Shown in pieces: positions 1,109-49,758 of a DNA stretch of 64,000 nucleotides. The DNA comes from Sphyrna mokarran (Eukaryota): positions 96,906,001-96,970,000 of the forward strand of contig JAGIQG010000008.1 in the NCBI GenBank assembly GCA_024679065.1. The letters run 5' to 3'. Position 1 is the stretch's first letter, and each line of letters opens with the position of its first letter. The position numbers and the translations under genes were made by a program. The notes under the pieces were generated by a model. That model had not been told where the DNA came from. It made no database searches and saw nothing but the letters and a program-made list of their open reading frames with translations.

Positions 1109-1207
1109 AACATATACCGAAAGGAGCAATCATCGGAGGGATCTGTGGCTTTGCTGTATTATGTGTAGTGTGTTTAGGAGTTTATTGCTGGATCAAAAAA
1201 TGTAAAG
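1109..1207 (+). CDS. Paralogue A transmembrane exon, B7-H6/NCR3LG1-like (EHIPKGAIIGGICGFAVLCVVCLGVYCWIKKCK)
   Basis: tttaacag acceptor, G|gtacag donor, 99 nt phase 1-1; hydrophobic stretch followed by basic residues; near-identical to 44717-44815. Confidence 0.88.
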
Positions 1208-3670
1208 GTACAGTCCTTTTCATTTCCAAAAAGAAGAACTATAAATGCTAAAATAAGAATTACCTGGATTTTGGATTTTTAAAGTCACTTTGCTTAAAGA
1301 AGTTGACTATCTGTTGTTAATGTACTCAGCTACAGAAAGGTAATGATTTCTTGGCAAGTAATCGCAATTATTGAATTGCTTTGTTTCTCTAACATTGGTT
1401 TCAGTTAACATTGGCCGGTCTCAGTATGATAATTCCTGGTTTCCTGTTACTCTTTTCATCACAAATGACAGAGTCATTATGGCACAGAAGGCGGTCATTC
1501 CCCTATCAAATCCTGGCTGGCTGTCTGTAGAGCAACCCAATCAGTCTCCTTTGCCTGCTCTATGTCTGTGGCTCTGCATGTTTATTCCCATTTGCCCATT
1601 CAATTCCCTTTTCAAATCATTTATTACCCTCATTGCGGGTTATTATGACCCGCTGTGTCAAATAACTGTCCTTCACTTTCCCTCTTCGATTCTTGGCTCA
1701 ATCTTAAATGTGTCAGCCAGCTCTTGTAGCATCAGCCTTTATTAAATCTATGTGGAGTGGGTGGGTGTCATTTTCAGCTCACATCCATCATCAGACATAA
1801 TGGTGACAAGGATGGAAAACTTTGAGAATTGGGAAACATGATTCACTCCAAAGAGATCACATTTCCCAATTTTCTACATCCCTCGCCAGTGACGTCACGA
1901 GGTTAACTCCACGATAGGATGAGAACCTCATTTTAATGGCTTTAAATAAATTTTATTACAATTACCCAGCCCCCAACATGATTCTATCCTCACAATATTC
2001 AAACTTTGCTGACATGACATCACATCAGCAAGATTTACAAGAGCTTTTCAAAAATTGAGAGTCAGTCGACTCAGAAGTAAGTATAAACCTTTGGAGGAAA
2101 GGGCATGACCTGGCACTTCCCCATGGCACTGCTTCCTGACTCAGATCACAACTTTCCTCCAAATTGACACTGACTGACTTTCTGATTCCATGGGTATTCT
2201 TGAACAGTGATGGGATTTCCTGTCCACAGAACAGGTTGGTGGAGAGTACATCCCTGTTTTGTAGGGCAGCTCCTCTGTTATTCAGTGCTCTGAGGAGATC
2301 GGTCTGTCTTTGAGAAGTCTTGGCCATCTCATGTAACTACGGAATCTCCTATAATACGTTGCTGTCCCTGCATCGCACCCCCCTGACCCCCAAACCACCC
2401 CCCCTGCCCCCGACCCCCCTCTCCATCCCAGTTGTCACCCAATTGCAATCCTTTGTCCATTGATGCCATGAGCTGGAAAGCACTCTTTCAGGGTGTTGTC
2501 AAACGTTAGTCTTCAATAATAAGTACCAGCCTCAGAGTGGCAGACACCCTGAAGACATCTGCACTGCTGTCTCTTCCTACTCTTCTGGCTTGTTGCACAT
2601 CCAGTATCCTGACCTGCCTATGAGGTAGCCACCTGTTGGAACTTACAATCCAGGAAACTCCTTGATGTTGTGGAGTGACTTCAGATATCCTTCAACAATT
2701 CCTCTCTCCCATAACATTTTTTCACTTCCCTAATGTGGTCCTCCCAATAACAAATTTGTAAGTGGGAAATAATCCAGAGATTATAATCTTTGAGATGTTT
2801 TCCTTCAATTAGTTCTGGGACCCTGATAGTTTCCAAATAGAATTTCGCTCCCACGCTTTACCATGTTGTTCATCCTGACATGGATGGAAATGATAGGATC
2901 CATCTGTTCATTTCCAAAATCATTTCATGCCAGTTTGAAATGTTCCTCACCCTCACACAGCTTAGAAAACAATCCATGTAAGACTCCTGATCCTGCTTAC
3001 AAACAGCGCTATCTTTCCTCTTAATTACTGAATCTCCTACAAATACCACACTAATCTTCTTCTCTTCCCTCGACTTTTGACAGCCTGCTGCTCCAATGAT
3101 GCCATTATTCATATTCTGTCTATCTCTGAATATCCACGCTGGTAACAGGTATATTGTGTGTGTTACATAGGATCAATTTCTAGGTTTCTATTTAACCTAT
3201 GCTCCCTTTGAGCTGCACACAGCTGGTCACAGCAAGCCTATTCTGAACTTGTACTTCTTTATAAGATGTTACCAAAGTCTTAAGTGGCCAGAAACTGTTT
3301 CCATCCTTGTGTGTCAGAGCACTTTCACTTCACAATCTGGCTCAATGATTCTGACCCAGAACAATTTGAAATAGCAACAACCACCTGACATATATATGTC
3401 TGGGGCTATCTCACAGTCCAGAACCACTAACCTTCTGCAGTCCAGACAAAAATCCTGCTTGCTATAACTTTTTTATAATCATCAGGATGGGTTCAGTTTC
3501 ATTTTACCTGAACAATGGAAGAGTTGAGACAAATGTTTCATTCGAGTGGTATCATAAATTCTTAATTAAACGACAATCTGTAATGGCATTGTTAAAAAAT
3601 TCTCACATTCAGGATCAGCTGAGATAGTTTGTGTGCTTGTTAATATATTTTGATTACATTGTTCTTTCAG

Positions 3671-3727
3671 AACCAAGCAATCGAGAGGAAAGTGAAGATG
3701 AAAGAAGCAAAGCTCCTCTTGTAACAG
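3671..3727 (+). CDS. Paralogue A cytoplasmic micro-exon (EPSNREESEDERSKAPLVT), single copy
   Basis: ttctttcag acceptor, G|gtaaat donor, 57 nt phase 1-1; homologous to the 7 micro-exons of paralogue B. Confidence 0.82.
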
Positions 3728-6141
3728 GTAAATACTTATGCTGAGTACACAGTTTCTGTTCTCAGCAATTTAACCTGAATTTAGACATTTATTTAACAAC
3801 AATTAGAAGTTCGACAATATCAGGATGAATTTTCGTGAATTATCGAGGCCTTTTAAAAAGCTGGTTCACATCACTGAAGAGATTCTTGGGCAGTGACTGA
3901 AATGCAGACATTATGGAAATTATTGCAGAAATATGCACATCAACATCCTAAAACCAATAAATAAAATGAATAGGGCACTCAGTAGAACCTCCACCACACG
4001 TGTTAACTCATCATTATTACAATCACCTCGTGCTATTTCCCTGTTTGGTTGATGTCCTGCAAGGACAGAGCAGAAAGATAAATCTTTTTATTCGGAGCTT
4101 CCATCTCACGGAGGAGACTTCAGGCCAATTCGCATTCAACAATCTGTTCTGAAATCACAGCTCACATTTTGACAGCTGCGACAAATTTCACCACAGCAGC
4201 TGAATGAATTCATAACATTGAGAAGGTCAATTTGCCCTATCTCCCAATGATTATGGCTCCATTAAAAAAAACAGGATCTAGATCCAGATCAATATTTTCA
4301 CCAAAAACTAATCATCTCTTTCTTGGGACATCTCCTGCTGTGCACCAAGTTTCGCTGAAATCAGGCCATTCAGTTTTGAGATATGGTTTGGCAATTTTGA
4401 ACCCCACACTCTCCATCTGCGGGAATGGTGGTGCATGTTCAAAATGCCAAGAGCGCAATTTGTGCTATCCAGTTTCCGAGTGCCGAACTTTCCAGCTTCT
4501 TGTCAGTGGAGTGGCATGAAACATGTGGTGGAATGGTAGTACGCTCATTTTAACATATTAGTATGTCATTAGCAAACACTTTCTCCAGATCTTTCCCCTC
4601 ATCTGATATGCTAGCTCCATTTATAACAGGTTCATCCAGACATGAACCTGTCATGGGATTCTTCCTGGAGCATAATGGTGAGCGTAGACAGAGGACAGAG
4701 ACATGGCAGAGCAGTGGTCCAGCCCTTTAGCACAGATTGGCGCTGCCAGGTTGACATCATGCACACATCAACCTGGCCATGCCAAACAGTGCCAGGTGTC
4801 AGCCCCATTCCAAACGTCAAGAGGATTTATTCACATTTGGTTATGGACCAGAGATGGATTGAGGAGCAGGGTGTGCCAGTGATGGCTCTCGGTTGGATGG
4901 GTATTGGCTCCTTAATTTCTTTTGGCAGAGTGCCGTAAGATCTATAGAGAAAATCAAACGGTTTCTTTGGAGAGTAACACACTAGTTTTGTCACCCGGAG
5001 CAACATTTTGCCATTTTGATAAGATTCTTCCCATTATTTTCAAATATACAAATGGACTAACAAATGAGTAATAACATTACCTCCTACACCTTCACTGTGA
5101 TAGGTTATTCTGGGTTTTTTTGTTTGGCATTGGTTGAGAGCGAAGAGCAGTTTAGTATAAGCAGAGTGTCAAGGGATTATTTTTTAACATTTATCTGAGC
5201 AATCAAATAATCCTTAAATTACCAAATCTTTTAGAAATTGCCACCATTAACTTTTATCGCAATCACCTTGGATTCTGTACTTAAGCCATAGAATGGAGTT
5301 CAAACCCATAACATTATGAATTAAAGCCAAGATTGCTGCCAACTGAACTAATTGAATCGTGGAGGGCTGTGTGTACAGGTCTTCGTGACAGCATTCTGTC
5401 AAATATTAACAATGGTTAATACATTCCATTTGCCATTGGGCTTCTGATTAGCAAATTATCAAATGTTCTCACTATATAAAACAAAATATTATCCAAATGA
5501 CTTCAATTTAGCAGAGATTTGCCTGTAAGTACATCGTAAATATTGTGATTCTCATAAGGGCTCTGGATCTGAACTGGCAGTTCACTAATCCTGCTTTAGT
5601 TACAAAGCTGCCATAATGTAAGTAACATCAAATCACTCACTCGCAGAGACTCAAACTATGATAGAGTGGTCCCTGTAAGGCGACGGATATAAGTGTGTTA
5701 TAGGACTCTACTGGAGCAATGGGGAAGTGCATGAACAGACACCCATTGGGTGTTGGAGTGTGGGTCCTGTTAAGAGGAAACCTTTAGTGTGAGCCCAGCA
5801 GTTGGTGAAACTAGACCTGTACCTGCATTGAGATTATTGCATGTAGTTTTATTCTTTCCTTCAATAAACCACTGTTGTGATTCGAAATTTCCTGGTCATG
5901 ATATCTTATTCTAAAACACAAACAGTGGCCCATTAGCTTGTTAATATCAAGATGCAACCAAGAAGAAATCAGTTTGAGCAAATCAGTGAAACAGCTGCTG
6001 CTGAAAACCAATTAATCCGCTCATCGAATTTTTAAATAAACATTCCTGTCAGTTCAGTTTCTAGTTTGTATCTAAATAAGAATATGCAGGAGAGAATCAC
6101 AATATAAGAGTTCATATCACAATAATGTTTTTGTTTTGTAG

Positions 6142-6564
6142 TTCCTCCTATAATTAGTGATATCAAGAAACCACATGAAATTAGTGATGGTGAGGAAACC
6201 ATTCTGCATTGGGACGTTACTGTGTTCAGACCAGAGGTGATGAACATTGTTACATCTGTGAAAAGGAAAGGGCAGCAGGAAGCAAAGAAATTATTTCACT
6301 GGAAAATTTCAGCAGAGATGCTATCAGGACCAAAGAGAATAACTACTCCCATCAAAAATGTATTGAATGGCAAGAAAGACGATTCCTTCAGTGCTGACAC
6401 GCCAGAATTGCAACGCAAACCTGACAGATCTTTCTGCATTCCCTGCTCCATTACATTGTGTCCTGATGTATCCAAGGATGATGGTGCTGAATTAATCATT
6501 GAAGTTAAACGGGATGCCAGTGAGGAAACGTGGACGAAAAGCACAGTATTGAAGATCACAGCAG
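6142..6564 (+). CDS. Paralogue A exon encoding a degenerate C1-set Ig-like domain lacking the canonical cysteines, predicted cytoplasmic
   Basis: ttttgtag acceptor, G|gtaatt donor, 423 nt open, phase 1-1; VPPIISDI...TILHWDVTVFRP...PDRSFCIPCSITL...ELIIEVKR...STVLKIT follows C1 strand order. Confidence 0.8.
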
Positions 6565-6787
6565 GTAATTTCTGTACGTTGTATATCACAAATACTGATA
6601 CGATTATGAAAACGTGAATATAAAAAGAAATAAAGAGAGCTTGAAATGCTATTGCCTTTCAATATTATGATGAAATTTAGCAAATCCTACATAGATATGA
6701 TTAATCAAACATCAGTGTAATAATTTGGTCAGAAGTTATTTACTGGTTCAGATCAGCACTGTCAAAGAGGACTTGAGAACAGGAGCA

Positions 6788-7322
6788 GTACAGGGCCTTA
6801 GTGAGACTGCACCTGGAGTATTGTTTTGCAGTTTGGGACTTTATCTAAGAAAGGATACATCTCCTTAGAGGGTGTTCGGTGAAGCCTCACCAGACTGATT
6901 CCTGCAGTTGCAAGATTGTCATACAGAGAGAGATTGGTTCGACTGGGCCCTTATACACTGGAGTTTAGAAGAATGAGAGTGAAACTAATTGAAACGTATA
7001 AAACTCTTAACAAGGTTGGACAGCGTGGATGCAGAGATATGGTTTCTTCAGGCTGGGTCACAATCTCAGTATATAGGGCAAGCCATTTAGGACTGAAACA
7101 TGTGAATTCTCGACCACAGAAGGTTGTGGAGACCAATTCGCTAAATGTTTTTAAAAAGGAAATGGATAGATTTCCACATTCTAAAGGAGTCAAGGGGATA
7201 CTTGGAGAAAGTGACAATATGTCGTTGAGATAGAGGATCAGCCATAGCCATGTTGAATGATGGAGCAGGCAAAAAGGGCCAAATGGCCTTTATCTGCTCC
7301 CATTTTCTATGTTTCTGTTCCT
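6788..7322 (+). mobile_element. Degenerate CR1 LINE 3' fragment
   Basis: LSYRERL..LG.YTLEFRRMR..LIETYK motif; ttctatgtttct tail. Confidence 0.85.
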
Positions 7323-7638
7323 GAATCACTGAGTTGAAACTTCTTTTGCAACATTATCACTTGGAATTCTGCAGCCATTCACACCCTACCATCCCTGCAA
7401 GCATGGACAGAGAATCTGGCAGTCAGCTAAGTCTCTCTTTATTGCAGTAAAACCTGAGATTCCTGCCGATGTAAAGGGCTGGAAAATTCCAGCTCCCGTC
7501 AACACTCTGTGGGAAATATTGTTGGTTCTCAAATATGTCCACGCAACATGTGTGGCACGGTGATTATTACAGAAAGCACTATCAGTTAAAAGAATTAATG
7601 GCTACACAATTAATTAATTACAGTAATTAACTGTAATT

Positions 7639-7972
7639 GGGCAGCATGATAGCACAGTGGTTAGCACTGCTGCTGCATAGCTCCATGGGCCTTGATTCAT
7701 TCCTGGCTTGGATCACTATCTGTGTGGAGTTTGCACATTCTCCCTGTGTCTGTGTGGGTTTCCTCTGGGTACTCCAGTTTTCTTCCACAGTCGAAAGATG
7801 TATAGGTTAGGTTGATTGGCCATGCTAAAATTGCCCCTTGGTGAGTTGAGATGTGTAGGTTAGAGGGATTAGGGGGTAAATATGTAGAGATATGGGGGTA
7901 GGGCCTGGATAGGATTATGGTCAGTGCAGACTCTATGGCCAAATGGTCTCTTTCTGCACTGTAAGGTTTCTA
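7639..7972 (+). mobile_element. tRNA-derived V-SINE (HE1-like)
   Basis: A-box-like head gcacagtggttagcactgctg; V-core tgtgtggagtttgcacattctccc; LINE-type tail. Confidence 0.85.
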
Positions 7973-8737
7973 ACATTTGCCAAAAGCACAAAAATACGTT
8001 AATAGATACTAATTTCTACAAGTAATTCTTGGCTTCTACTGGTGTTCTCTGTTTGTAATTTACATTTGTTATGCTGCCTCTGAACTGACCATTGATAACC
8101 AGGTAGTTATTAATGACATAGATTGCAGCAATCCTGAATCCTGCAGTCACCCCAGAATCCTTAACAAATACAGACCCAAAATGAGATGGACAATCTTATT
8201 AACTAACAAAATTTATGCACTCAAGCCTGCTCTGTCATTTAATAAGATCTGTCTAATCTGGTAACACTCTCAAATCTTCATTGCACCCACCTACTCCTGA
8301 TAATCTATCACCACCTTGCTTACCAAGAATCTATCTGGTTAAATATATTCTTTTTATCTCTACGTTGGGTTGAGGATGATTTGCTTGTACACTAAAAATT
8401 CATTCTCAGGTGACTATGAAGTTCTATGGTCTCAGTAACAGGTGGAACATATAATGGTTGGAGGATCTGGTGATTGGAAGTGTATGGATTTCCAGATGCT
8501 CCTTTCACTGTCAACACTTGGCTTTCACTTGTTCTTGGCAATGGAACTTAAGGTGTTCAATTCCTTCCTAAATGCTTTTTGTCCATATCAGGTGTTCTTG
8601 GGTCACGGATTCCCAGGTCAACGGGAATGTTGTAGTTTTTCAAACAGCGTACCTTCAAAATATATTCAAAGAATATGCTTCCCCCACCTTTTTAGAAAGA
8701 GTTCCAAAGACTCTCAATCCAACGAAAAAAAAAAATC

Positions 8738-9146
8738 TTTTTCGAGAGTATCCTAGTGCTTCACGTTGTTAGTGTATGCTTGACCTGGACCATTTGATGG
8801 GCAACACGACAGCTCAGTGACTATTGCTGTGCTGTTCAGATACATGGATTTGGGCCTGTGTCTGTGGGAGTTTGCGCATTCTCCCCGTGCTTGCGTGGGT
8901 TTTCTCTGGGTGCTCCGGTTTCCTCCCACATCCCAAAGATGTGCTCTTAGGCTAATTGGCAAAACAAATTCTTCCTAATTTGTCTCAAATTTGGTTTTTT
9001 AATCCATAGATCTTTAAACATAGACAGGGATCATGGGTAGAGGTGGGAACACTGGGGAGGCAGTGCGGGCTCGTTGGGCCGAAGGGCCTGTTTCCCATGC
9101 TGTTTTGTTCTTCTTTGTTCTTCTTCTTCTTCTTTGTTCTTTGTTC
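8738..9146 (+). mobile_element. 5'-truncated copy of the CR1 3' UTR that contains a V-SINE core
   Basis: Matches 35530-35897; ends in a (TTCTTTG/TTC)n tail. Confidence 0.85.
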
Positions 9147-9882
9147 TGAGAGAAAAGATTTCATCTCATCTCCATTTTAAATGGGCAATCCCTTTAAAAC
9201 AGTGACCTGAGCTCTCGCACAAAAGGAAACATCTTCTCCATATCCATCCTGTCAAAGCCCCTCCTCATTTTATGTGTTTCATGATATGTATGATTCATAA
9301 ATGAAACTGTAGTGGATTCAACATAACATTAATCTGAATGGAAGTTCATCACCATCAGGATGTTCCACAATGTGTCTACTGGTCAGGTATAGTGAAGTCA
9401 TGACATCCTTTCTCCACTTGTATCATTCCCTGTTCCCTTGCTTTGCTGTCTGTGGAAATTGTTCCTGATTGTCATGGACATTCTTGTAATTTGACAAAGA
9501 AAACCTGAGATAAATGCAGCCAAGCTAACTATCAGTCAAGGACTCCAATGCTTTGAGTACTTCCTCTCTCTTTATGATTATTCCATCCAATATCTCACAA
9601 TGTTCTTCCTGGACTGCTAAACCTGCATGACCTCTTTCCTTTGTAAATATGGAGACAAGGGCCTGGTTGTGCCAAAAATTCGAGCGCAAAATCGTGGTAA
9701 ATTCGGGCTTGGGTCTTTAATGCAATCTGCACCTGAATCCGAGCAGATTGCAGCTTTACCGACATGATTCAGATATGGACCAGTCCATGCCTGGATTGTG
9801 CAGCCCAATGATTTAAATGCATTAGCATGCATTTGAATCGACTTATTGAACCACGCGCCCAATTCTACCGTCAAATCCCAGT

Positions 9883-10449
9883 CCATCTTAAGGCCAGAAA
9901 CGAGAAAGTTTGCTGGAGATTGCATAATGTTTGGCTCTATTTGCTACTTGTCAGAGTCTGAGACAGTCTGTTTCCATATATTTGATTTATTATTGTCACA
10001 TGTCTTCACATACTTTGACTCTGTCTGCACTTCACACTTCCTTGGCAAAGCAGGCATCATAATTAAGGACCCCACATACCCCAGACGTTCTCTCTTCCAC
10101 CTTCTTCTGTCAGGAAAAAGATACAAAAGTCTGAGATCATGTACCAACCTTCTGAAGAACAGCTTTTTCCCTGCTGCCGTCAGACTTTTGAATGAACCTA
10201 CCTTGCATTAAGCTGATCTCTACATTCCAGCTATGATTGTAACACTACATTCTGTACTCTTTCATTTCCTTCTCTATGAACAGTATGCTTTGTCCACAAG
10301 AAACAATACTTTTCACTGTATGTGAAGGCATGTGACAATAATAAATCAGATCAAATACATGGAAACAGACTGTCTCAGACTCTGACAAGTAGCAGAGCCA
10401 AACATTATGCAATTTTCAGCAAACATTTCCGTTTCTGGCCTTATGATGG
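9883..10449. repeat. ~130-bp inverted repeat (9883-10013 / 10318-10449) flanking a Rex1/Babar LINE 3' end
   Basis: The two arms are reverse complements with few mismatches or indels. Confidence 0.9.
10019..10357 (+). mobile_element. Rex1/Babar-like LINE 3' end
   Basis: IIKDPTYP..SLFHLL.SGKRYKSLR..T..LKNSFFPAAVRLLN C-terminal motif; aataataaatcagatcaaat tail. Confidence 0.75.
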
Positions 10450-10519
10450 AGGCGAGGTTATTGGGATTAGGAAGTGCCTGTGAAATTCCTGCAGTGATCA
10501 TCAAGGTTGAGTTAAATAG

Positions 10520-10865
10520 CTTCCAACATGCAGAACCATTTTCCATTGTGCCAGATTAGACTAACCAGTTGAAGAGTTTTCTCTCCGATTCCCACTGACA
10601 CCAGTTTTAACAAAGTTCCTTGATACCACACTCTGTCAAGTGCTGCCTTAATGTTAAGGACAGTCATTCTCACCTCATCTCTTGATATGAATTTTTTTTT
10701 ACTCATGTTTGGACTGAGGCTGGAATGAGATCAGGAGCTGAGGGTCTTGGCAGAAGTCAAACTGTCAGTGAGCAGTTCATTGCTGTGTAAGTGTTGCTTC
10801 CATCACTTAGCTGATGATCGAGAGCACACTGATGAGAATTGGATTTGTCCTGTTTTTTGTGAACT
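10520..10865 (-). mobile_element. Old LINE (CR1/L2-like) RT fragment
   Basis: LNIKAALDRVWYQG resembles the RT motif LDxxKAFDxVxH. Confidence 0.65.
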
Positions 10866-10871
10866 GTGCTC

Positions 10872-12849
10872 CTAAAGGCAGGAACTTATGGAAAGTGATT
10901 GGGAACAGTTGTTCGAGGGTAAGTCCACGCTAGACATGTGGGACTCTTTCAAGGGAATACTGAAAATGTTGCAAGATAGATATGTGCCGGCTAAGAGGAA
11001 AGATGGGAAAAGTAGGATTAGAGAGCCGTGGATTACTAGGGATATTGAGGACTTGGTTAGGAGGAAAAGAGAGGCATATGAGAGGTCAAAGCAGATGGGA
11101 ACGGAGACAGCATTAGAGGAGTATGGAGAGAGTAGGAGGGAGCTCAAACTGGAGTTAGAAGGGCAAAAAGGGGGCATGAAATGATTTTTAGGATAGGATG
11201 AAGGAAAATCCAAAGGCTTTTTACTCCTATGTTAGGAATAAAAGGGTGGTTAGAGGAAAAATCGGACCTCTTAGGGACAGAGGAGGGGAATTGTGCTTAG
11301 AGCCCGGGGGAATGGCGGAGATCCTGAATGAATACTTTGCATCGGTATTCAGAAAGGTATTCACAAAGGAGAGGGGCTTGTTGACAGCTCCTGTCTATGA
11401 GGAAGCTATGGACCAGTTGAGAGAAATATCCATACCAAGGGAGGAAGTGTTAGAGCTTCTGGGTAGCATTAAAACTGATAAATCTTCAGAACCTGATGGC
11501 ATTTATCCCAGGCTGCTTAGGGAGGTGCGAGGTGAAATTGCTGGGCCTCTGACGCAAATCTTTGTCTCTTCTTTGAACACAGGTGAGGTCCCAGAGGACT
11601 GGAGAATAGCTAATGTTGTACCGTTGTTTAAAAAGGGTAGTAGGAATAACCCTAGAAATTATAGGTCAGTGAGTTTGATGTCAATGGTAGAGAAGCTGTT
11701 GTAGGGGATTCTTAGAGATAGGATGTATAGGCACTTAGAGTGTTGCGATCTGATTAGGGATACGCAGCGTGGATTTGTTAAGGGGAGATCGTGCCTTACA
11801 AATCTGGTAGAATTTTTTGAGGAAGTGACGAAAATGGTGAATGAAGGGCAAGCTGTTGATGTCGTCTATATGGATTTTAGTAAGGTGTTTAACAAAGTCC
11901 CTCATGGGAGGTTAGTTGAGAAGGTCAGGGCTCATGGGATACAAGGACAGGTAGCTAGATGGATAAGTAACTGGCTTGGTAATAGGAGACAGAGAGTAAT
12001 AGTGGAAGGGTGTTTTTCTAGCTGGAGGTTCGTCACTAGTGGTGTGCCGCTCGGTACTGGGACCTCTTCTATTTGTAATATATATAAATGATTTGGAAGA
12101 GGGAGTAAGTGGAGTGATCAGCAAGTTTGCAGATGATACAAAGATGGCTGGATTTGCGGATAGTGAGGAGCATTGTCAGGCGATGCAGCAGGACATAGAT
12201 AGGCTGGTAGCTTGGGCAGATAGATGGCAGATGGAATTCAATCCTGAAAAATGTGAGGTGATGCATTTTGGGAGAAAGAATGTAGCGGGGAGGTATATGA
12301 TAAAGGGTAGACCTATTAAGAAACGCAGAGGGACCTGGGGGTGCAGGTGAACAAGTCTCTGAAGGTGGCAGAGCAAGTGGAGAAGGTTGTGAAGAAAGCA
12401 TATAGTATGCTAGCCTTTATAGGAAGGGTATAGAGTACAAGAGCTGGCCTTTAATGTTGCAGTTGTATAAAACGCTGGTTAGACCTCATTTGGAATACTG
12501 CGTCCAGTTCTGGTCGCCTTACTACCGGAAGGACGTGGAGACTCTGGAGAGAGTGCAGAGGAGGTTTACCAGGATGCTGCCTGGTATGGAAGGTCTGAGT
12601 TACGAGGAGAGGTTAGGCAAATTGGGACTGTTTTCCTTAGAAAGACGTAGACTTAGAGGAGATCTAATAGAGGTGTACAAGATTATGAGGGGTATAGATG
12701 GAGTAAACAGGGTTAAGCTTTTTCCTAGGATGGACTCGAATAGCACAAGGGGTCACGGGCTTAGGGTGAGGGGGGTAAGGTATAATTTGGATGCTAGAGG
12801 GAGTTTTTTCACACAGAGGGTGTTGGGGGTATGGAATGCGCTGTCAAGT
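10872..12849 (+). mobile_element. CR1 LINE ORF2 fragment with frameshifts, truncated at both ends
   Basis: KENPKAFY, DWRIANVVPLFKKG, YMDFSK, KFADDTK and VRPHLEYCVQFW motifs. Confidence 0.95.
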
Positions 12850-13023
12850 ACTCTTCAGAGTAATAGGAACATCTATTGATGGATGAAAAACATTGAACTG
12901 AAAATGTCTATTATTTGCAAATTGGCCAAAACAATTATCTCTGTCCCTCCTGCTCCATTATAAAATGAGTTCACACTGCCCTGTAATTTTGTGTTCACTT
13001 TGAAACAACAAATGCCTCTTCAG

Positions 13024-13101
13024 GCAGTCCAAGCAGTTCTCTGATTGAAACGGGAATACCACAGAATCAAAATGAAGTAACAAGAAATCAGGATACTAAA
13101 G
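13024..13101 (+). CDS. Paralogue A cytoplasmic exon (GSPSSSLIETGIPQNQNEVTRNQDTK)
   Basis: cctcttcag acceptor, AAG|gtgagt consensus donor, 78 nt open, phase 1-1. Confidence 0.62.
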
Positions 13102-13399
13102 GTGAGTTGATGTTCAAATCCAGGAAATCAGTACGTATTTGATGAAATGCTGCAAGACACAATATTCAACATATTTGTATCAGATAAAGCAGCTTTTGTT
13201 AAGTGTAGAAATTGATTGAATTTTCTGATTTGAACACCAGGCATCATTCCAACTGAAATGAGAGCCACGATTCTCCCAAAAATGCTGAACTGGTTGGAAA
13301 ATTGTTCTAAATCCTGTTTTGTCAATTCAGCTTTTCTTCCAAATTTCTGCGCTGTATGGACTGTAGAGGCTCCAGTTGTGATTATCATTAAAAACCTGG

Positions 13400-14910
13400 G
13401 CAGGGGGTGGGGGGAGTGCTATTTGCGCTGAGTGTTTGACAGCTCTGGAACTCTGCACATATGCAGTGGTCCCGATCTGTCAGTCTCCCTACTTGCTAGC
13501 CTGCTCGATCACTGACCAGATGGGGACTTTTGCAGTGCTGTTTCTCCAGACCTCCTACAGCCTAATTGCGGTCCCCACAATAATTCCCGGGCCAACCCTG
13601 ACCCCCCCCCCCCCCCCCCCCAACCACCACCACCACGACCACCCCATCCCTGATGCATAGCCCACCCACCTTCCCGCAGTGACGATCCCACAATCCCACA
13701 CCGCAGCAGACATCTTCCTGCTGATCGCTCCAGGTCAGACACCCCAGAGGTAGGCCCTGTCTAGCAGACCACCCTGCCCCAGCCCACCCAATTGCTGCTC
13801 TCCCTCTATCCTAGACTGATTCTGTTTGTAGAGTGACAGCAGGACCCCCACCTCCACCGATTGCACCTTAGCCCTTTCACAATAGGCCACTTCCCCTTGA
13901 CAGTGCCCAATGCCAATGGGCAGTGCCAAGGTACCCATTGGACATGGGCACTTTACCCCTTGGGCAATAACAGGACACGGGCTGGCACTGCCAGAGTTCC
14001 CATGCCCAGGGGACACCACTAATCATCACTCGATTCCCTGAAGGGTCCTGATTGCTTCCCTTTCATTCTGGCAGGGTCTCCTGCCGGTTCCTCAAACGTG
14101 AGAAGATAATGTAAATCTCGCTGGAATAAAGTCCCCTTAATGGGGTGGATAGTAAAGACCAGTAGCAAAATGCTGATCAGTCAGTGACGCAACCCTGCAA
14201 TGCCGGCCGTGTGACCCCCCTCCTCCTCGCATCCCCCAGTGACAGCCTCAATCTCACACCTTCCTCATCCCCCGTCCCCATCCCCAGCAGTCCCAAAGCC
14301 ACCCTCACCCCATCTCCACAGTGCCTACCACTATCTCCCCCACCCTGGCCTATCCAACCACTCAGCAAACTGCTCCCATTCTGATGGCTGGCCTTCTACC
14401 AATACTGGCTGCAGAATGGCAGTATGATCCCCTGCCTTCAAAAGGCCCTAACCCTAGGCACTGCCTTATGCCTGGTGGGCAGTAACAATGCATCCTCTGG
14501 GCATTGGCACTTTGCACCTTGGGCAGTGTCAGGTGTCCAGGCTGGGACTGCCAAGGTGCCAATGCTGAGGGGCATCCTCTCGGCGCCCAATCTTCTGGGG
14601 GATATTGATTGCCCCCTCTTCACTCCAGCTGGATCAGGCCGCTACCTCTCCATTGGTGGGATCTATAATGGTCCCTGCTGGAGTGAAATATTTCTGGGCC
14701 CGGAGATTTCAGTTCCGGGCCTGTAAATTGCATTCAAATTACATTAAAATTAGGGCTGCATAAATTATTCAGCTCCATGCCTATTTTCAGCACAGAGTTG
14801 ATGGCATCAAAATCCAGCACTGGGAGATGTGCTCAAGACTGGATGCCCAGCACGGATTGTATATTCAGCCATAGCTTGAATGTCCTGGTTCACTGTGCTG
14901 AGAATCACCT
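13400..14910. repeat. GC-rich unclassified interspersed repeats (MITE-like; ggcagtgcc/ggcactgcc motifs)
   Basis: The same motifs recur at ~17110-17230, 21535-21585, 24700-24800 and 45700; boundaries approximate. Confidence 0.5.
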
Positions 14911-15524
14911 GTTATATTTTAATATTTGCTAATTGCATTATCATTACTGTTTCTGCATCTTTACACATTGTACACAATATCTTTAGATTGTTTATATTTC
15001 TTTTGTGCATCAATGAAGGATCATAGGTCCCTGTGCAAAAGACAAAAGCATTACTGAAAGAAGAAAGTAAAGTGCCACTCCCTGTGTAACTGCATTACAG
15101 CACCTACACACCATCAGCTTCTTGTTACACAAAACACCACACATTCGTCACTCACCCAGCACAAACAACACTCCTGGTCACTGCGACCACCTATCGGACA
15201 TCAAGATACTTCTCAATCTTTCATTCAGGCACCTATCAATGAAGCTACTAATCTGTTACCCATTTCTTGTGATCTCCAGAGACCTCCACCTATTCAACTG
15301 TGGCAGGCACATCATCCAAACAAACCATTGCGCAATCACTGCTGTTCTTCACTCATTATTGCAGGGCAAGGACACAGAGCTGGGAGGCATAAGGATATCT
15401 TCACCTCCTGATCTGTGGGGACTTGACAGTTCTCTGCATCATGCACTATTGCAGCATCAGGAGACCTAGCTGCTGATGAACCGTCTCTTGTATTTGGAAC
15501 AGGTCAAGAATTGAATGAAATGCT

Positions 15525-16244
15525 GGAGTTAATGGGAATCAGGGGAAATCTCTTAACTGTTTGGAGCAATACTTAGGGTAAAGGAAGATGGTTATGGATG
15601 ATAGAGATCAATCATCTTAGCTCCAGAACTTCACTGCAGGAGTTCCTCAGAATAGTGTCCTAGGCCCACTACTTCATCAATGACCTTCTTCCATCACAAG
15701 GTCAGAAATGAGGATGATCATAGCTAATTGCACCATTCGTGACTCCACAGATTCTGAAGCAGTTCATGTCCAAATGCAGCAAAGAGTGGATAATATTGAA
15801 ACATGGGCTGATAAGCGGCAAGTAACATTTGTGCCACATAAGTGCTAGGAAATGACTATCTCCAATAAGAGAGGATCTAATCATCAGTCCTTGACATTCA
15901 ATGGTGTACCATAGCTGAATCCCCCACTATCGAGAACTTGGGGATTACTGTTGACCAGAAAAAGAACTGGATTGGCCACATACTGAGGCTACAGAGCAGG
16001 TCAAAAGCTAAAAGCCTTTGGTGAGTAACTCACCTCCTGAATTCCCCAAAACCTGTCCACCATCTACAAGGTAAAAGTTAAGAGTATACTGGAATACTGT
16101 ACACTTGCTTGCATGAGTACAGCTCCAATAATACTGAAGAAGCTCAACATGATCCAGGATAAGACAGCTCATTTGACTGACATCCATCCCGCATTCACTT
16201 CCTCCACCACTGAGTTGCAGTGACAGCTGTGTGTATGGTGTGCC
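15525..16244 (+). mobile_element. Old LINE (CR1/L2-like) RT fragment
   Basis: ggagttcctcagaatagtgtcctaggccc (GVPQ.SVLGP), heavily decayed. Confidence 0.7.
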
Positions 16245-17599
16245 TGTCATACAGTTTTTTTTAATCCTTAAACGATGGAAAAAGAATTGCGAGTAGACTT
16301 CTTGTTAGTACACCAATATTTATTTAAAAGATACAATCAATAATCACCACCCAACCAGTAATAAATTAACTTACAGAAAATACGAAAGTTCAAGCTCAAT
16401 TACGAGACCTTGCCTTAACTTTGCGTAACTGGCAAGTACCCAAGTAGATATTGACATTTGTCTGTGTGCTGGTCTCTATGGTCCTCTACATAGTCTGCTC
16501 CTTTGGTCTGGTCTGGCACTCTGGCTCTGGTCTTCCTTTCTCCTCAGGTGTGGCGGTTCTCCTCGTGCTGCTCGTTGCTGGCGACGGTCACCATTGTCAC
16601 TTGTTTGTGGGTCAGAGAGAGAGAGAGAGAGAGAGCTTCTGTTGTGCCGCAGCTTTTATCCCTCCTTGGTTTCGTGTCCTTTTTGGGCGCTTCCTGATTC
16701 TTGTCAAACAATCAATCAATCAGGAATCGATCATCTTGATTGGCAAGAATCCAATCAAATGCTGCCACACTGATCTATGGGTGTGTACCCAATGGCCATG
16801 CCTGTCGCTGCTGGAGGTGCATAGGTCACATACTTCCTTCCCAAATAAGTGAATAAGGCACCCCTTTGCATGGTAAACAAATATGTTTGATCAGAAAATA
16901 TCCAATATCTTTGGGATGGCCTTTTTCCTATTATTCAGTCATCTAAGTTGTAGCCTGTTTATCTCTGTCTTTTAAGCTGCAATCTGCTGTTCCTTCTCTC
17001 ATCAATTCCAATGCAGAGTGGCATTGAAAACTCCCACCTTCATTGACTGTTCCCTAAGTCCCGTCCCTAATCAGGCCCACAGCCCTATAAGATTCTGCTC
17101 CTTGTTACAATGCCCCATAATGGATAGGTAGTGCCAAGGTGCCTGCTGGGCATGGCCATTTTGCCCTATAGTCAGTGCCGTGGAGCATAGGCTGGCACTG
17201 CCAAAGTGCCCATGCCCAGGTGGTACCATTCCCCACTGCCTGACCCCTTGGGGGATGTTACTGATTGCTCTCCTCTTCATTCCAGCCGAGTGGTTCCGAT
17301 AGCTTCCCGAAAGTGGGGACTACTGTAAACCTCAGTAGAGTGAAGTAAATGGAGAATTCAGTCCAGGGCCCACTAATCACACGGAAATAACATTAAACAT
17401 AAATGTAAATAACTTGCTTGGTGTTCCCACCAATTTCCAGTGCAGATCTGACAGCACCAGAAATCTGGCATTAGAAGATACACGTACAGCGGGAATGCAT
17501 GCATGAATCCCACGCCTGCCCAGATGTGACATTATCCCACTGCGCTGGACTAGAAAACTAGCAATAATGGGGTGGAAAAATCATCCCCTTATGTTCTAT

Positions 17600-17720
17600 T
17601 GGAGTGACGGACATTGAGGGGAGACCTAGTAGAAGTCTACAAGATCATGAGAGGCATGGACACAGTGGATAGTCGGAAGCTTTTTCCCAGGGTGGAAGAG
17701 TCAATTACCAGAAGCCATAG
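17600..17720 (+). mobile_element. CR1 fragment
   Basis: LRGDLVEVYKIMRGMD...LFPRVE. Confidence 0.8.
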
Positions 17721-18440
17721 GCTGGGATTGCAACATAGGATGTGGACAGTGTTGGGACACCATTTATTGGCATCCTTAATTGCCCATGAGGTAACACTGA
17801 TGATCCTCCTAGATGGAATGTTCATGTGGAATATTTGTGTGGTGCAGGTATGTCTACAGAGTTCTTAGGAAAATATTCCAGGTTTTCAGTCCTTTGACAG
17901 TGAAAGAACTGACAAATATTTCCAAGTCAGAATTGTGTCAGACTTAGAGGATAAGTTGCAATTGCAGGTGTTTCAATACACTTTCTGCCCTTGTTCCTCT
18001 AGATGTCAGTGGTTATGAATTTGGAGGCTAATCTCATATAAGCAGTACTGGACCAACTAAACCAAAATATAATTTATTGATTGTGTGGAATATAGGAGAC
18101 TGTTCAAGTTAGCAAAAACCTCATTTCATCAAAGACCAGCAGATTTATTTCAAGATTGCACCCTTAACAAACCAATTTGTGCAATAGATGGTGGTAGTAA
18201 GAAATACAGTCAGACATATTTTATTGAATGCAGGAAATAATTTTTACTCAATGAGGCAATGACCTGTACATAATGGCATCAAGTGTTTTTTGAAATATTA
18301 GCTACACTATTCATAAAGTAACATTGAGTTCATCTAAATTCATGTCCATTGTTTGCATGTCAGCCAAAAGAAATATCACTGTACTTTCTGCTCCTTCATG
18401 CTATGAGTTTATTTTATCATTTATTTTTGTGTTCTTCTAG

Positions 18441-18590
18441 AATTAACAGAAGCATCTGCAGAATATCAAACAATATCAAAAAAAAATGGAAGCTCCACTA
18501 AATCAGAATGAAGAGCAAACGAGTTCAGAAAATCAAGAATCAAAATTGGAGCAAACTCAACTGTCCCAATCGTCTTGTTCTGTAATGTAG
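18441..18590 (+). CDS. Probable terminal coding exon of paralogue A (ELTEASAEYQTISKK...); stop at 18511 as written, or at 18590 if the A9 run is A8
   Basis: Strong polypyrimidine/ctag acceptor, phase 1; YQTI motif; the shifted frame resembles exon 13024-13101; AATAAA at 18828. Confidence 0.6.
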
Positions 18591-33055: not shown

Positions 33056-33107
33056 ATGGGGATTTTATTTTTAAGTGTTGTCGCCATGGCTTTCATTTCA
33101 CCAGCAG
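33056..33107 (+). CDS. NCR3LG1: Paralogue B exon 1, signal peptide (MGILFLSVVAMAFISPA)
   Basis: aggATGg Kozak context; hydrophobic leader; CAG|gtaaga phase-1 donor compatible with the IgV exon. Confidence 0.78.
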
Positions 33108-36168: not shown

Positions 36169-36169
36169 T

Positions 36170-39802: not shown

Positions 39803-40141
39803 GACCTTTAGAATTGGAGATATTTCCTTCACCACTGGAAGTTTCAGCAAATGAAGATGCTCTTCTAATGTGCAAATTTGATAAACCAGAATACGACCTC
39901 ACACACACAGCTGTTCAATGGATTTTTGGATCACAGACAAACCAGAGAGACATATATGTATTTAATGGAGGAGATCATTACCCAAAGAGAAATGGAGCAA
40001 AGTTGTTCGATGATGCTTTACGGAAAGGAAATGCTTCACTTTACCTTCCAAATGTACAGTTTGATGAAGCAGGAGAATATACATGCATAGTCATTGTTAC
40101 TCCCCAAAAAGAACAAATGAGTTCAGTGATGCAAGTATCTG
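39803..40141 (+). CDS. NCR3LG1: Paralogue B IgV exon, B7-H6/NCR3LG1-like
   Basis: C..W..C V-set pattern; GNASLYLPNVQFDEAGEYTCIVIVTPQK resembles recalled human B7-H6 [28 protein letters not shown]; 339 nt, phase 1-1, G|gtaaga donor. Confidence 0.88.
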
Positions 40142-40845: not shown

Positions 40846-40889
40846 TCTTGTTCACTTGGTGAATCTGAATTCACCAGATAGTAATACAA

Positions 40890-41882: not shown

Positions 41883-42287
41883 GTGAACCTGATTATGTTG
41901 CTGGTGAGGGGCGAGGAAAATCGGAAATTTCTGTCTTGCCAATGGGATTAATGATTTCCAGTTTACTCTGGATTTTGAAATCCCTTTGATGATCTTGTGC
42001 ACAGAGAAGGTGGGCTCATGATCCCGCCCAGAGTAAATAAAAATAAGGAAATGGGGAAATGTTGAGTAATGACTTTGCAACAATCTTTGTAGGAGAAAAA
42101 TACAAGAATAGCTTGTCAGACGTCCGAAGGGAACACTAAGAAGTAAAGAACTGAATCAATGTGGTAGCTTTTCAGATACAGCAGCTGGAATGCAGAATTC
42201 AAGTCTCTTAAAATAAGAAATTGCAACATCTAGTTTGATCTGTGACGCTGTATTAACAGCTTACATATCCTGTTCTCTTTCACACAG

Positions 42288-42593
42288 TTCAGCCAAAAGT
42301 CAATATGTACTTACAAGAAATTGCAACTGCAGATCGCACAGGGCACTTCTTGGTATGTGATGTGAAGGAATTTTATCCTAAACAAGTCAATATTAGTTGG
42401 TTAATGCTATCAGAAGGAAAAAAGGAATATATTTCAGAAAATCAGTCTGTCGAAGATTTAGTTACGAACAGTGATGGAACGTTTAGTGTTTCCAGTAAAA
42501 TAAGAGTTGAACCAACGTTGGATGATCGCACTAAGTATACATGTGTGGTGAAGCACAAAACCTTTCTTGGCGATTTTACACTGGACTCTGAAG
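42288..42593 (+). CDS. NCR3LG1: Paralogue B IgC1 exon
   Basis: LVCDVKEFYPKQVNISW...NSDGTFSVSS...YTCVVKH C1-set signature; 306 nt, phase 1-1; cacag acceptor and G|gtaagg donor. Confidence 0.9.
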
Positions 42594-44716: not shown

Positions 44717-44815
44717 AGCATATACCTAAAGGAGCAATTATCGGAGGAATCTGTGGCTTTGCTGTGTTATGTATAGCATGTTTAGGAGTTTATTGCTGGA
44801 TCAAAAAACGTAAAG
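44717..44815 (+). CDS. NCR3LG1: Paralogue B transmembrane exon (EHIPKGAIIGGICGFAVLCIACLGVYCWIKKRK)
   Basis: 99 nt, phase 1-1; hydrophobic helix followed by KKRK. Confidence 0.88.
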
Positions 44816-47742: not shown

Positions 47743-47796
47743 GACCAGGCAAACCAGAGAAAAGTGAAGATGAAAGGAGCAGAGCTCTTCTAAGAG
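47743..47796 (+). CDS. Micro-exon 1 (GPGKPEKSEDERSRALLR)
   Basis: ttgtttcag acceptor, G|gtaaat donor, 54 nt. Confidence 0.8.
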
Positions 47797-49701
47797 GTAA
47801 ATATTTACGCTGAGTACTGACTTTCTTTTTACAGCAGTTCATTCTGAACTTAGGCATACATTTAACAGCAGTTATGGAAGAGAGGCAATTTTCAGCTTGT
47901 GTTTGCTGTCAGAGTGAATGGCAATTGAGGATGGAAAACCTGGAGAGAATTGGGAATCCCAATTCTCCCTGGAAAATATTTCCCCATGTTCCATATCCCT
48001 TGCCCATGACATCACAAGGTTCATACATGGTCAAGAACCTCATTTTAACGGATTTAAATACATTTTTCTCGATTTACAAAGCTACCTCACATCACCCCAT
48101 CCTCACTGTATATTCAAACCTTGCTGACATATCAAAGTAGTGAATCTTCCCCTGAGGACATTGGTTCCAGTGCTGTTGACGCCCCCCCACAATCCCTTCT
48201 CCCCCACTCCACCCCCTCTCCCTCCCTCCCCACTACCACCATCATTCAATCCTTTATCCATTGAAGGTGAACTGGACTGCAATCTTGCCACTCATCGCCT
48301 CCAGTGATGAGTAACAGATTCACGGTGACACAAACACTTCTGTTTCTTGCTACTCTTCTGGTTTGTTGTACATTTTCTATCCTGAACTTTTACTGCCTAT
48401 GAGATGGCCACCTCTTGGAAAGTATGATCCAGGAAACTCCCTGATGCTGTGAAGTAACTTCAGATATCCTTCAACAATTCCCCTCTCCCAAAACCATATG
48501 TGCACCTCCCCAAAGTGTTCATCTCAATGTCAATTTGTCAATGGGAAATAATCCAGAAATTATAATCATTGGCGTGTTGTCCTTCAATTACTCCTGGATC
48601 CTGATAGTTTCCAAATAGGATCTCGTTCCTACTCTTTACCATTGTTGTTTATTCTAAAATGAATGGCAATGACGGGATCCATCTGTTCATCTCCAATATT
48701 ATTTCATGCCAGTTTGAAATGTTCCCCACCCCAGCACTGGTTAGACAACAAACCAAATAAAACTGCTTTTTCTGCCTACAAAGAGTGTCTCCTTAAGCAT
48801 TTAATCTCCTAGAAGAAGCACTAATCTTCTTCTTCTCCCCCTACTTTTGACAGCTTGCTCTGCAATGCTGTTATTATTCCAATTTTGTCTATCTGTCTAA
48901 ATATCCACACTGGTAGCAGGTATGTTGTGCCTGTCAGATAGGATCAATTTCCATTGTCTGTATCTAACCTGTGCTCCCCTTAATTTACATACAGTTGGAC
49001 ACAACAACCTTATTCTGAAGTTGCACTCCTTTATGAACTGTCACCAAAGTCTAGATAAAAGTGGCTAGGTATTCTTTCCACCCTTATGTGTCAAGGTGCC
49101 TACACTTCACAATCCAGCTTAATGGTTCTGAGCCAGAGAAATTTGAGATGCAGATATCCACAGAAGATATGTTCATTGGGGCTATCTCACAGCCCAGAAT
49201 CACTCATCTCCTGTGGCTCAGACAGAGAACCTGCTCTGCTATAACTTAGTAAAAAATTTTATAAACATCAGAGGTTTGGTTCTGTTTCATTCTATTGAGT
49301 GATGGAATGGTTGAGACAAATGTTTCATTCAAGTTATATCAAAAATTCCGAATACAAGGTGTTGAAATGAGAATATAGAATGGCATCGTTACAACATTTT
49401 CACATTTGAGATTAGTTGTTAAAACTTATTACTCAATCACAAGCAGGCTTACATTAAAACTGCAGTGATGAAACTCTGAAATTCCCCTAATCTAGTGCCT
49501 GTAACCAGCATGTCTTTCAGAATGGAGAGAGGAAACCGGAACACCCTAAGGAAACCCATGCAGACACGAGGAGAATGTGCAAAACTTCACACAGTGACCC
49601 AAGCCAGGAATTAAACCCAGGTTCCAGGTGCTATGAAGTAGCAGTGCTGACTGCTCTGTCACCATGCCTGTTAATGTATTTTGATTGTATTGTTGTTTCA
49701 G

Positions 49702-49758
49702 GGCCAGGCAGACCAACAAAGAATGAAGATGAAAGCAGCAGAGCTCCACTTTTAAAAG
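49702..49758 (+). CDS. Micro-exon 2 (GPGRPTKNEDESSRAPLLK)
   Basis: Intact splice sites, 57 nt. Confidence 0.78.

Follow-up and report, generated by a model that had tools for sequence, protein, structure and literature searches.

Gene A of Sphyrna mokarran encodes a B7-H6-like receptor with an Ig-like domain, D1, behind its transmembrane (TM) segment. We consider it rather probable that D1 is cytosolic and disulfide-free, is the remnant of the first unit of a longer tail, and acts as a docking scaffold. The locus lies on the forward strand of contig JAGIQG010000008.1 (assembly GCA_024679065.1). The window, the whole stretch of DNA analysed, has 64,000 nucleotides (96,906,001-96,970,000), and coordinates refer to it unless given as contig positions. 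C1-set domains typify the extracellular parts of antibodies, T-cell receptors, and MHC, and are normally extracellular or lumenal. A C1-type array behind a membrane anchor, from chimaeras to alligators, is unexpected.

Exon structure of gene A

Three exons of gene A lie upstream of the window, namely the leader exon (-14155..-14104; contig positions 96891845-96891896), the IgV exon (-5661..-5323; 96900339-96900677), and the IgC1 exon (-3613..-3299; 96902387-96902701). Five more lie within it, all on the plus strand. The TM exon (1109..1207) encodes one hydrophobic helix followed by basic residues, and the juxtamembrane micro-exon (3671..3727, 57 nt) encodes a charged linker. The D1 exon (6142..6564) has 423 nt and 141 codons, and its product is predicted to be a 140-aa Ig beta-sandwich. 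It is followed by a predicted low-complexity tail exon (13024..13101, 78 nt) and by the last coding exon (18441..18511), which is attached through a predicted joint, runs to the stop codon as assembled, and contains the sole tyrosine of the cytoplasmic part. All five exons have an AG acceptor and a phase-1 entry, and all except the last have a GT donor. In agreement with the sequence-only reading, which had called an open, phase-compatible exon behind the TM exon and the micro-exon, the D1 exon is open and has phase 1-1. In translation, the eight exons of gene A give one open 477-aa protein (leader-V-C1-TM-D1-tail). The end of the gene had been placed at 18590. That position belongs to another frame, past a run of nine A, and is rejected in favour of the stop at 18511.

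B7-H6-like identity of gene A

As judged from its exons and open frame, gene A has a type I layout (leader, IgV, IgC1, and one TM), and its domains are 85-91% identical to the corresponding domains of Mustelus. The paralogous gene B matches both the V-set and the C1-set of Pfam. A profile made from the family alignment finds human NCR3LG1 (B7-H6) first, with an E value of 2e-40 (142 bits), and CD276 with an E value of 2e-22 (83 bits). With the V domain of gene B alone, CD276 scores slightly above NCR3LG1 (56.5 vs 51.4 bits). Among PDB entries, human B7-H6 ranks first both for the family profile (E 2e-40) and for an alligator six-domain protein (E 3e-47), and the relatives found via D1 are named NCR3LG1 by NCBI. 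These comparisons indicate that gene A is B7-H6-like, as had been proposed, with an ectodomain that resembles human B7-H6 more than the rest of the B7 family. The human-type tail, with its GAG-homologous region and ITIM-like motif, is absent from the gene A tail and also from the non-mammalian NCR3LG1 models. Therefore, it is not taken as family-defining.

Predicted fold of D1

Searched alone, the D1 exon of gene A gives no Ig match in Pfam, with no C1-set match at E values up to 10, and no Ig match among PDB sequences. The Ig nature of D1 rests on its paralogues, on a model, and on fold searches. The orthologous D1 exons of two neighbours exceed the Pfam C1-set cut-off. In the alignment to a cysteine-keeping orthologue of the same cluster, the strand-B Cys is replaced by Trp, the core Trp of strand C by Thr, and the strand-F Cys by Ile, and the DxxF/S motif ahead of strand E is retained. 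Against this reference, the four residue changes named earlier are right. D1 is also ~35 aa longer than the ectodomain C1 (140 vs 105 aa); the sequence-only reading had noted a loop insertion of ~25 aa.

The AlphaFold model of D1 (alignment of 29 rows) is an Ig sandwich with a pLDDT of 90.3, and a second model made from the cysteine-less subfamily alone (12 rows) reaches 81.6. Ranked by structure, the closest matches of the D1 model are Ig domains without exception (Z 11.3, rmsd 2.7, 113 aligned), a second comparison likewise returns Ig domains (Z 10.4, rmsd 2.6, 112 aligned), and the top Foldseek matches include beta-2 microglobulin and MHC II chains. The fold check put forward with the sequence-only reading thus points to an Ig domain. 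The insert lies between strands C and D, where the model shows it as one strand, a short helix, and loops; because of these extra residues, the model aligns best with V-type domains. The ESM Atlas returns C1/C2-set clusters for D1 (0.90-0.92); the recognition value is below its mark, which makes this a lead only. A homodimer prediction for D1, run with the alignment not used, scores 0.00 and gives no answer either way. On the combined testimony of sequence and model, we file D1 as a putative C1-derived domain, not as a C1-set member. In the cytosol, it is predicted to form an Ig sandwich that does without a disulfide. In this reducing compartment the disulfide would be dispensable, and the bulky Trp and Ile may occupy the core instead.

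D1 as the probable first unit of a post-TM array

With a D1 profile, the D1 exon of gene A reaches 69.4 bits, with an ectodomain-C1 profile 4.1 bits, and in the domain tree it falls in the D1 clade with a support of 91/95, which is under the star level of the tool. Behind the TM, neighbouring paralogues carry an array of some six C1-like domains (D1-D6). This array is also present in chimaera, rays, bichir, coelacanth, lungfish, amphibians, snake, and alligator, and several of these proteins carry the NCBI name NCR3LG1. The order V..TM..Ig is found in 90 of the 150 best representatives, and one Logan contig of 3,886 bases contains a 949-aa V-C1-TM-D1..D6 frame. D1 orthologues with the same insert occur in chimaera, coelacanth, lungfish, amphibians, and reptiles. 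By sequence comparison, non-mammalian B7-H6-like proteins generally have Ig arrays behind the TM, and the D1 of gene A is likely all that remains, as the first unit, of an ancestral tail with six C1-type domains. The architecture is already in public gene models, from chimaera to alligator; a precedent in non-mammalian homologues had been thought conceivable. It may also have been reported for Xenopus in 2012. In the shark subfamily of gene A, D2-D6 would have been lost and D1 kept once or multiplied in tandem; other sharks have 2 to 8 tandem D1 copies, and V-C1-TM-D1-only proteins recur in frogs.

The canonical cysteine pair differs between pre-TM and post-TM domains. In 82 of the best 150 representatives, it is intact in 158 of 164 pre-TM and 149 of 308 post-TM domains, 105 of the latter have one unpaired cysteine of the pair, and D1 keeps the pair in 2 of 57, although counts across proteins are not phylogenetically independent. 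Among the six-domain tails, both cysteines are retained in D2 (15/16), D3 (15/16), and D6 (14/15), and D4 retains an unpaired B-Cys (16/16). Within the cluster, the D1 exons form a graded series. At one end both Cys and the Trp are kept (Pfam C1-set 35.4 bits), an intermediate exon keeps the B-Cys and the Trp (24.3 bits), and at the other end all three are lost. A broken cysteine pair is, in these alignments, the rule for D1 and not a peculiarity of gene A. Of the earlier proposal that a C1 domain was redeployed, the C1-type ancestry and the disulfide loss stand, but neither is the change special to gene A nor was the exon copied from its own C1. The branching order of the five gene lineages is not fixed in the ectodomain tree; the cysteine losses are therefore not rooted by that tree.

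Topology and transcripts

Topology prediction for gene A gives one signal peptide, one TM, and basic residues behind it, which places D1 on the cytosolic side, as the sequence-only reading had supposed. The junctions 1207-3671 and 3727-6142 have equivalents in contigs of relatives. The TM exon is joined to the micro-exon in three of four runs and the micro-exon to D1 in one of four; these runs come from other species, were used out of 11 with small sequence shares, and have a guessed RNA status, with no run marked as RNA in the sequencing-run search. No single contig in the four runs covers TM through D1. Nine of 11 protein matches are RefSeq V-C1-TM-D1 models of other sharks.

Isoforms that lack exactly the TM exon are annotated in toad, stingray, caecilian, and horn shark, the last of these in a member of the cysteine-less subfamily, so the post-TM domains may be secreted as well. 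Isoforms skipping V and isoforms skipping C1 are annotated too; TM skipping may thus be splice noise.

Possible function and alternative explanations

The ectodomain of gene A would, by analogy with human B7-H6, bind an NKp30-type receptor. D1 may bind a cytosolic adaptor or trafficking factor, and this partner would control how the ligand clusters, how much of it is at the surface, or how it signals in reverse. Tandem D1 would raise the avidity for the same partner. Among 16 six-domain tails, no ITAM is found and a conserved ITIM is present in no more than six, and the gene A tail has a single Tyr; tyrosine-motif signalling as a conserved function is rejected on these grounds. We infer that the gene A tail is likely a docking scaffold instead.

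Two other readings assign D1 a different role. The post-TM domains could be kept mainly for a secreted, TM-skipping V-C1-D1..D6 form, a soluble NKp30 decoy, with the cytosolic place being secondary. This dual topology is consistent with the TM-less isoforms of four species, with the 6 of 115 V-C1-D1 proteins that lack a TM, with the cysteine pairs of D2, D3, and D6, and with a sequon in D2 (11 of 16 six-domain tails). In addition, all exons have phase 1-1, so TM skipping preserves the frame. However, the TM is kept in 109 of the 115 proteins, skipping affects V and C1 as well, the pair of D1 is nearly always broken, and unpaired cysteines are frequent behind the TM. In 15 six-domain proteins, N-glycan sequons number 38 vs 29.5 expected in the ectodomain and 67 vs 65.9 expected in the tail, i.e. 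the tail overall is at chance level. We regard the secreted form as an unlikely main reason for the array. Still less likely, in our estimate, is that D1 of gene A binds nothing and is either a leftover of the ancestral tail in decay or an inert spacer. Among young paralogues, the dN/dS of D1 is near 1 (0.69-0.95, few changes; 0.23 for C1), with 5 synonymous and 18 non-synonymous changes between genes A and B. Gene B has a second D1 that is heavily degenerate (51%), an upstream paralogue is without D1, and an apparently orphan D1 copy 2.4 Mb away is also open. Over longer distances, however, D1 is 73% identical to its lamniform orthologues, similar to V (77%) and C1 (70-71%), and 64-68% identical to the sister subfamily, compared with 44-50% for V and C1. 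The fold recovered from the cysteine-less subfamily alone, the tandem gain in other sharks, and the recurrent D1-only tails of frogs also argue against decay.

Two readings of the exon itself are highly improbable. An extracellular C1 exon of gene A or a paralogue might have been copied behind the TM in this lineage and then have lost its disulfide, as the same phase and the C1 motifs shared by eye could suggest. D1 and D2 do adjoin the ectodomain C1 in the domain tree (96/89, midpoint root only), which is compatible with descent from a C1 exon in the very distant past. But the preference for the D1 profile and the same-insert orthologues from chimaera to reptiles largely refute a recent copy, and what is left is conjecture on how the array arose before jawed vertebrates split. 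Similarly, the exon 6142-6564 could belong to another gene or be a gene-model artefact outside the TM-containing transcript, given that the contigs come from other species and none spans TM to D1. Against this stand the two joints in the contigs of relatives, the recurrent domain order, the 949-aa frame on one contig, and the finding of no other leader or V exon between the TM and D1 of gene A.

Relation to known proteins

Members of the B7-H6 family are NK-cell ligands. Human B7-H6, an NKp30 ligand, shares with gene A the signal peptide, IgV, IgC, and single TM. Its tail is GAG-polyprotein-homologous with ITIM-like, SH2-binding, and SH3-binding motifs, as described in PMC11476788, whereas the gene A tail consists of the micro-exon, the Ig domain, and low-complexity exons, and a seven-gene locus stands against one human gene. 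The NCR3LG1 models of Alligator, Pantherophis, Bombina, and Rhinophrynus have V-C1-TM and then D1, like gene A, plus further C1-like domains, and uncharacterised models in chimaera, rays, sharks, bichir, coelacanth, lungfish, caecilian, and newts have the same V-C1-TM-D1 layout. The non-mammalian NCR3LG1 models, which are automatic annotations and not functional descriptions, have about six post-TM domains with a D1 usually lacking the F-strand cysteine; gene A has D1 only, with the B-strand Cys and strand-C Trp also lost. D1 shares sequence ancestry and the beta-sandwich fold with C1-set domains (antibody constant domains, MHC, beta-2 microglobulin, tapasin), but differs from them by the missing disulfide and core Trp, the ~35 extra C-D residues, and the predicted cytosolic location. 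Butyrophilins combine a B7-family ectodomain with the cytosolic B30.2, a folded beta domain of non-Ig fold. The cytosolic I-set Ig domains of the titin type work without a disulfide, and are not part of a surface receptor.

We found no description of post-TM Ig domains in B7-H6 in the literature searched, which includes passages of PMC12227049, PMC10751288, PMC3964593, PMC6514059, PMC13262535, and PMC11476788 but not Flajnik et al. 2012 (pmid 22488247), Ohta and Flajnik 2015 (pmid 26284468), or two further Flajnik/Ohta papers.

A bolder reconstruction, possible though doubtful, is that the ancestral jawed-vertebrate B7-H6 had Ig domains on both membrane faces, with a six-domain cytosolic scaffold for signalling or pathogen sensing that was secreted upon TM skipping, that sharks and frogs repeatedly trimmed the tail to a disulfide-free D1 and multiplied it, and that the Gag-like tail of human came late. 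If true, cytosolic C1-type domains would gain their first functional class, undescribed in such form. The post-TM array recasts the human tail as likely derived. With a compact 140-aa bait, Xenopus or shark cells would allow a test of what B7-H6 signals into the ligand-bearing cell. The D1 family provides a graded natural series of disulfide loss within one fold, and a disulfide-free C1-type sandwich would be of interest for intracellular Ig scaffolds.

Gene B and the genomic neighbourhood

The locus comprises seven genes. The leader exon of gene B (33056..33107, plus strand, as are all gene B exons in the window) is identical to that of gene A over the compared part. It is followed by the IgV exon (matched range 39808..40140), the IgC1 exon (matched range 42287..42592; Pfam C1-set 53 bits, both cysteines present), and the TM exon (44717..44815). 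Seven of ten tandem in-frame micro-exon copies of 51-63 nt lie at 47743..60882; the other three and two D1 exons (window positions 78607-79029 and 87240-87662) lie past the window. The S. mokarran genome contains no D1 match for the upstream paralogue, whose Mustelus orthologue has two. Around the orphan-like D1 copy, a stretch of 90 kb contains no match to V, C1, TM, or micro-exon.

KCNJ11, which adjoins human NCR3LG1 on 11p15, is on the same contig as the cluster, 10 Mb off, with a myogenic bHLH gene 1.1 Mb from it. In 230 kb of flanks, the only clear neighbour among the ORFs listed is an IFITM-family gene, located ~25 kb beyond the cluster.

Exon structure and topology of gene A

The window (G000:C1437:96906001-96970000) belongs to a 2.77-Gb genome. 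Its closest protein matches come from sharks, with Mustelus asterias at 88%, which identifies the source as a shark. In gene A, the B7-H6-like gene, the exons at 1109-1207 (transmembrane, TM), 3671-3727 (micro-exon), and 6142-6564 (423 nt) are confirmed, with AG/GT ends and phase 1-1. Upstream of the window are three further exons: leader at 14.1 kb, V at 5.6 kb, and C1 at 3.6 kb. The eight exons, including two small tail exons, form a single predicted 477-aa frame with a stop at 18511. The gene end at 18590 proposed in the sequence-only reading is not retained, as it lies beyond nine consecutive A in a different frame. This A run (about 18480-18490), between the assembled stop and the longer frame, is either an assembly error or a real frameshift. 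The Mustelus protein match of the 78-nt tail exon reaches seven codons further upstream (12996-13024). The upstream site there is AG in the paralogous exons and TG in gene A; the acceptor predicted for gene A is an in-frame AG lying 21 nt further downstream.

Four of 11 sequencing runs listed were aligned to window 900-7000; they consist of contigs from related species, and that these derive from RNA is a guess. The proposed TM to micro-exon junction is found in three of the four, and in two of these the GT..AG cut equals 1207-3671. The junction of the micro-exon with exon 6142-6564 is found in one of the four. No single contig of the four runs spans from the TM exon to the large exon. In one run, a micro-exon-like piece follows the large exon, as in the Mustelus model. 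In addition, RefSeq models in which a D1-type domain follows V, C1, and TM make up nine of 11 protein matches, D1 being the first post-TM Ig domain counted from the membrane. The post-TM Ig exon is a real feature.

A signal peptide followed by one stop-transfer helix leaves the tail of a protein in the cytosol. Gene A has a signal peptide and a single TM helix with basic residues immediately behind, and its tail is therefore predicted to be cytosolic. The TM exon codes five cysteines in or just behind the helix, which are candidate palmitoylation sites.

Fold of the exon product

Searched alone, exon 6142-6564 gives no Ig family match. AlphaFold2 with a 29-row alignment gives a nearly all-beta model (pLDDT 90.3), and with the 12 cysteine-less rows only, the same elements (pLDDT 81.6). 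A Foldseek search with an E cut-off of 0.001 returns 233 matches; those listed are Ig domains, beta-2 microglobulin and MHC II among them. In VIA-align, the first model matches a TCR delta V domain (Z 11.3, rmsd 2.7, 113 aligned), and the second scores Z 10.4. The Ig-like domain claimed from sequence is thus predicted as an Ig beta-sandwich. The V-type preference is due to an insert of about 35 residues; judged by sequence, the ancestry of gene A D1 is C1 despite the V-type structural matches.

Origin of the exon

We searched about 570 kb of contiguous sequence (flanks and window) for B7-H6-like genes and found seven V-C1-TM genes across about 455 kb. Behind the TM exon, the four distal genes each have between four and six Ig exons, and most of these exceed the Pfam C1-set cut-off. 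Their first post-TM exons (139-143 codons) align end to end with exon 6142-6564, and the D1 exons of the cluster form a loss series. Its first step retains both Cys and the Trp, the second retains B-Cys and the Trp, and the last two have lost all three, with Tyr/Phe in one and Trp/Ile in the other (gene A). Scored against per-domain profiles from 16 multi-domain relatives, the gene A exon gives 69.4 bits for D1, 19.2 for D2, and 4.1 for the ectodomain C1. In a 56-row tree, it lies in the D1 clade (91/95), separate from the ectodomain C1 clade (100/96). Therefore, the exon is an eroded D1, and the earlier proposal that the ectodomain C1 was copied into the cytosol does not hold. The upstream paralogue has no D1 match in the flank and window search.

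Gene B, the paralogue starting at 33056, has a repeat-expanded charged linker between TM and D1: a tandem series of ten micro-exons, each in frame and 51-63 nt long (47743-60882, on to 76306). Partial frameshifted V-exon duplicates lie in introns of gene B (40778-41133) and gene A (G000:C1437:96893796-96893975). An open D1 copy with 96% DNA identity lies 2.4 Mb away (G000:C1437:99322237-99322659) in a duplicated fragment of ~3 kb; the 90 kb examined around it contain no match to a V, C1, or TM exon or to a micro-exon. At G000:C1437:97160000-97226500, one six-domain-type gene shows D1-D4 only, and an opposing minus-strand gene shows D1-D3, D5, and D6 but nothing that matches D4. The D5 and D6 of the minus-strand gene are almost identical to the corresponding domains of another paralogue, which suggests inversion or conversion. 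Many broken LINE-type reverse-transcriptase copies occupy introns and intergenic space (10875-12876, 27864-31689, 33965-38141, and others), as is ordinary for sharks.

Cysteines, sequons, and selection

Cysteines were counted in those 82 of the best 150 proteins that have a single TM with V ahead of it and Ig behind it; gaps led to the exclusion of six pre-TM and two post-TM domains. Of 164 scored pre-TM domains, 158 have an intact B-F pair, compared with 149 of 308 post-TM domains (D1, 2/57), a contrast that fits a reducing compartment, with counts not independent of phylogeny. The B-strand Cys-to-Trp change is also present in one frog protein. The 16 multi-domain proteins keep the pair in D1 (13/16), D2 (15/16), D3 (15/16), and D6 (14/15); D4 has an unpaired B-Cys in 16/16, and D5 has the pair in 0/14. 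Sequons number 67 in tails versus 65.9 expected by chance, and 38 versus 29.5 in ectodomains, somewhat above; a particular D2 sequon is shared by 11 of the 16 multi-domain proteins.

Compared with great white and basking shark orthologues, gene A is 73% identical in D1, 77% in V, and 70-71% in C1. Other sharks have 2 to 8 tandem D1 copies. Among young paralogues of this genome, D1 has a dN/dS of 0.69-0.95 (on few changes, with lower dS), compared with 0.45 in V and 0.23 in C1; the lower dS may come from gene conversion. Overall, D1 looks like a folded domain that has long been retained while its copies turn over fast.

Possible role of the tail

The likely binding partner of the ectodomain is an NKp30-type receptor. 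No ITAM occurs in the tail, and its only Tyr is unconserved; we therefore propose D1 as a docking surface rather than a module of tyrosine signalling. D1 would lie near the membrane and dock an adaptor or trafficking factor, and tandem copies would add avidity. The main alternative is that V-C1-D-type proteins are used in secreted form through TM skipping. Annotated isoforms from toad, stingray, caecilian, and horn shark lack precisely the TM exon, and six of 115 V-C1-D1 proteins have no TM; however, V-skipping and C1-skipping isoforms are annotated too. We consider exon, fold, side, and ancestry jointly to be very probable and a docking role of D1 to be an even bet; the explanation as a whole, docking included, is moderately probable. 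Viral down-regulation of human B7-H6 is reported (PMC5561058), and host-pathogen pressure acting on the tail would be plausible.

Range across vertebrates

Sharks, rays, and chimaera have the V-C1-TM-D1..D6 form, and coelacanth and frogs have forms related to it. Searching 1.84 billion representatives with a D1 profile gives 291 matches with E no higher than 0.001. The best 150 comprise 90 V..TM..Ig, 16 C..TM..Ig, and 4 TM..Ig proteins and 40 without TM, with TM assigned by our own threshold. Relatives extend beyond sharks: the 30 named among the best 150 are from sharks, rays, bichirs, coelacanth, lungfish, caecilian, newts, frogs including Xenopus laevis, turtle, lizard, snake, and alligators. 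Teleosts, birds, and mammals do not appear among these 30, which does not show that such proteins are absent from them. Relatives from Bombina, Rhinophrynus, Pantherophis, and Alligator carry the NCBI name NCR3LG1, and human B7-H6 is the top match of both the family profile and the alligator protein.

The B7-H6 receptor family is known, and the post-TM Ig architecture is already in public gene models, unremarked. Cytoplasmic Ig domains are reportedly mentioned in Xenopus B7H6-type genes by Flajnik et al. 2012. Apart from that paper and Ohta and Flajnik 2015, the two most likely to contain a precedent, the literature searched yields no description of post-TM Ig domains in B7-H6; the chance of a precedent of the Xenopus kind is about one in two. 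The human B7-H6 tail is GAG-homologous, with ITIM-like, SH2, and SH3 motifs (PMC11476788), whereas non-mammalian relatives have an Ig-domain tail. In the simplest reading, based on the non-mammalian relatives surveyed, jawed vertebrates would have had the Ig tail ancestrally, and the human tail would be a derived state.

Two D1-profile matches, P0113 and P0157, have a non-Ig N-terminal stretch fused to D-type Ig domains and no TM, and are possible soluble cytosolic fusions. By eye, this stretch may resemble the helix start of a pyrin/death fold. About 25 kb beyond the last B7-H6-like gene lies a two-exon IFITM/CD225-family gene (L059:2479-2808, 6236-6565).
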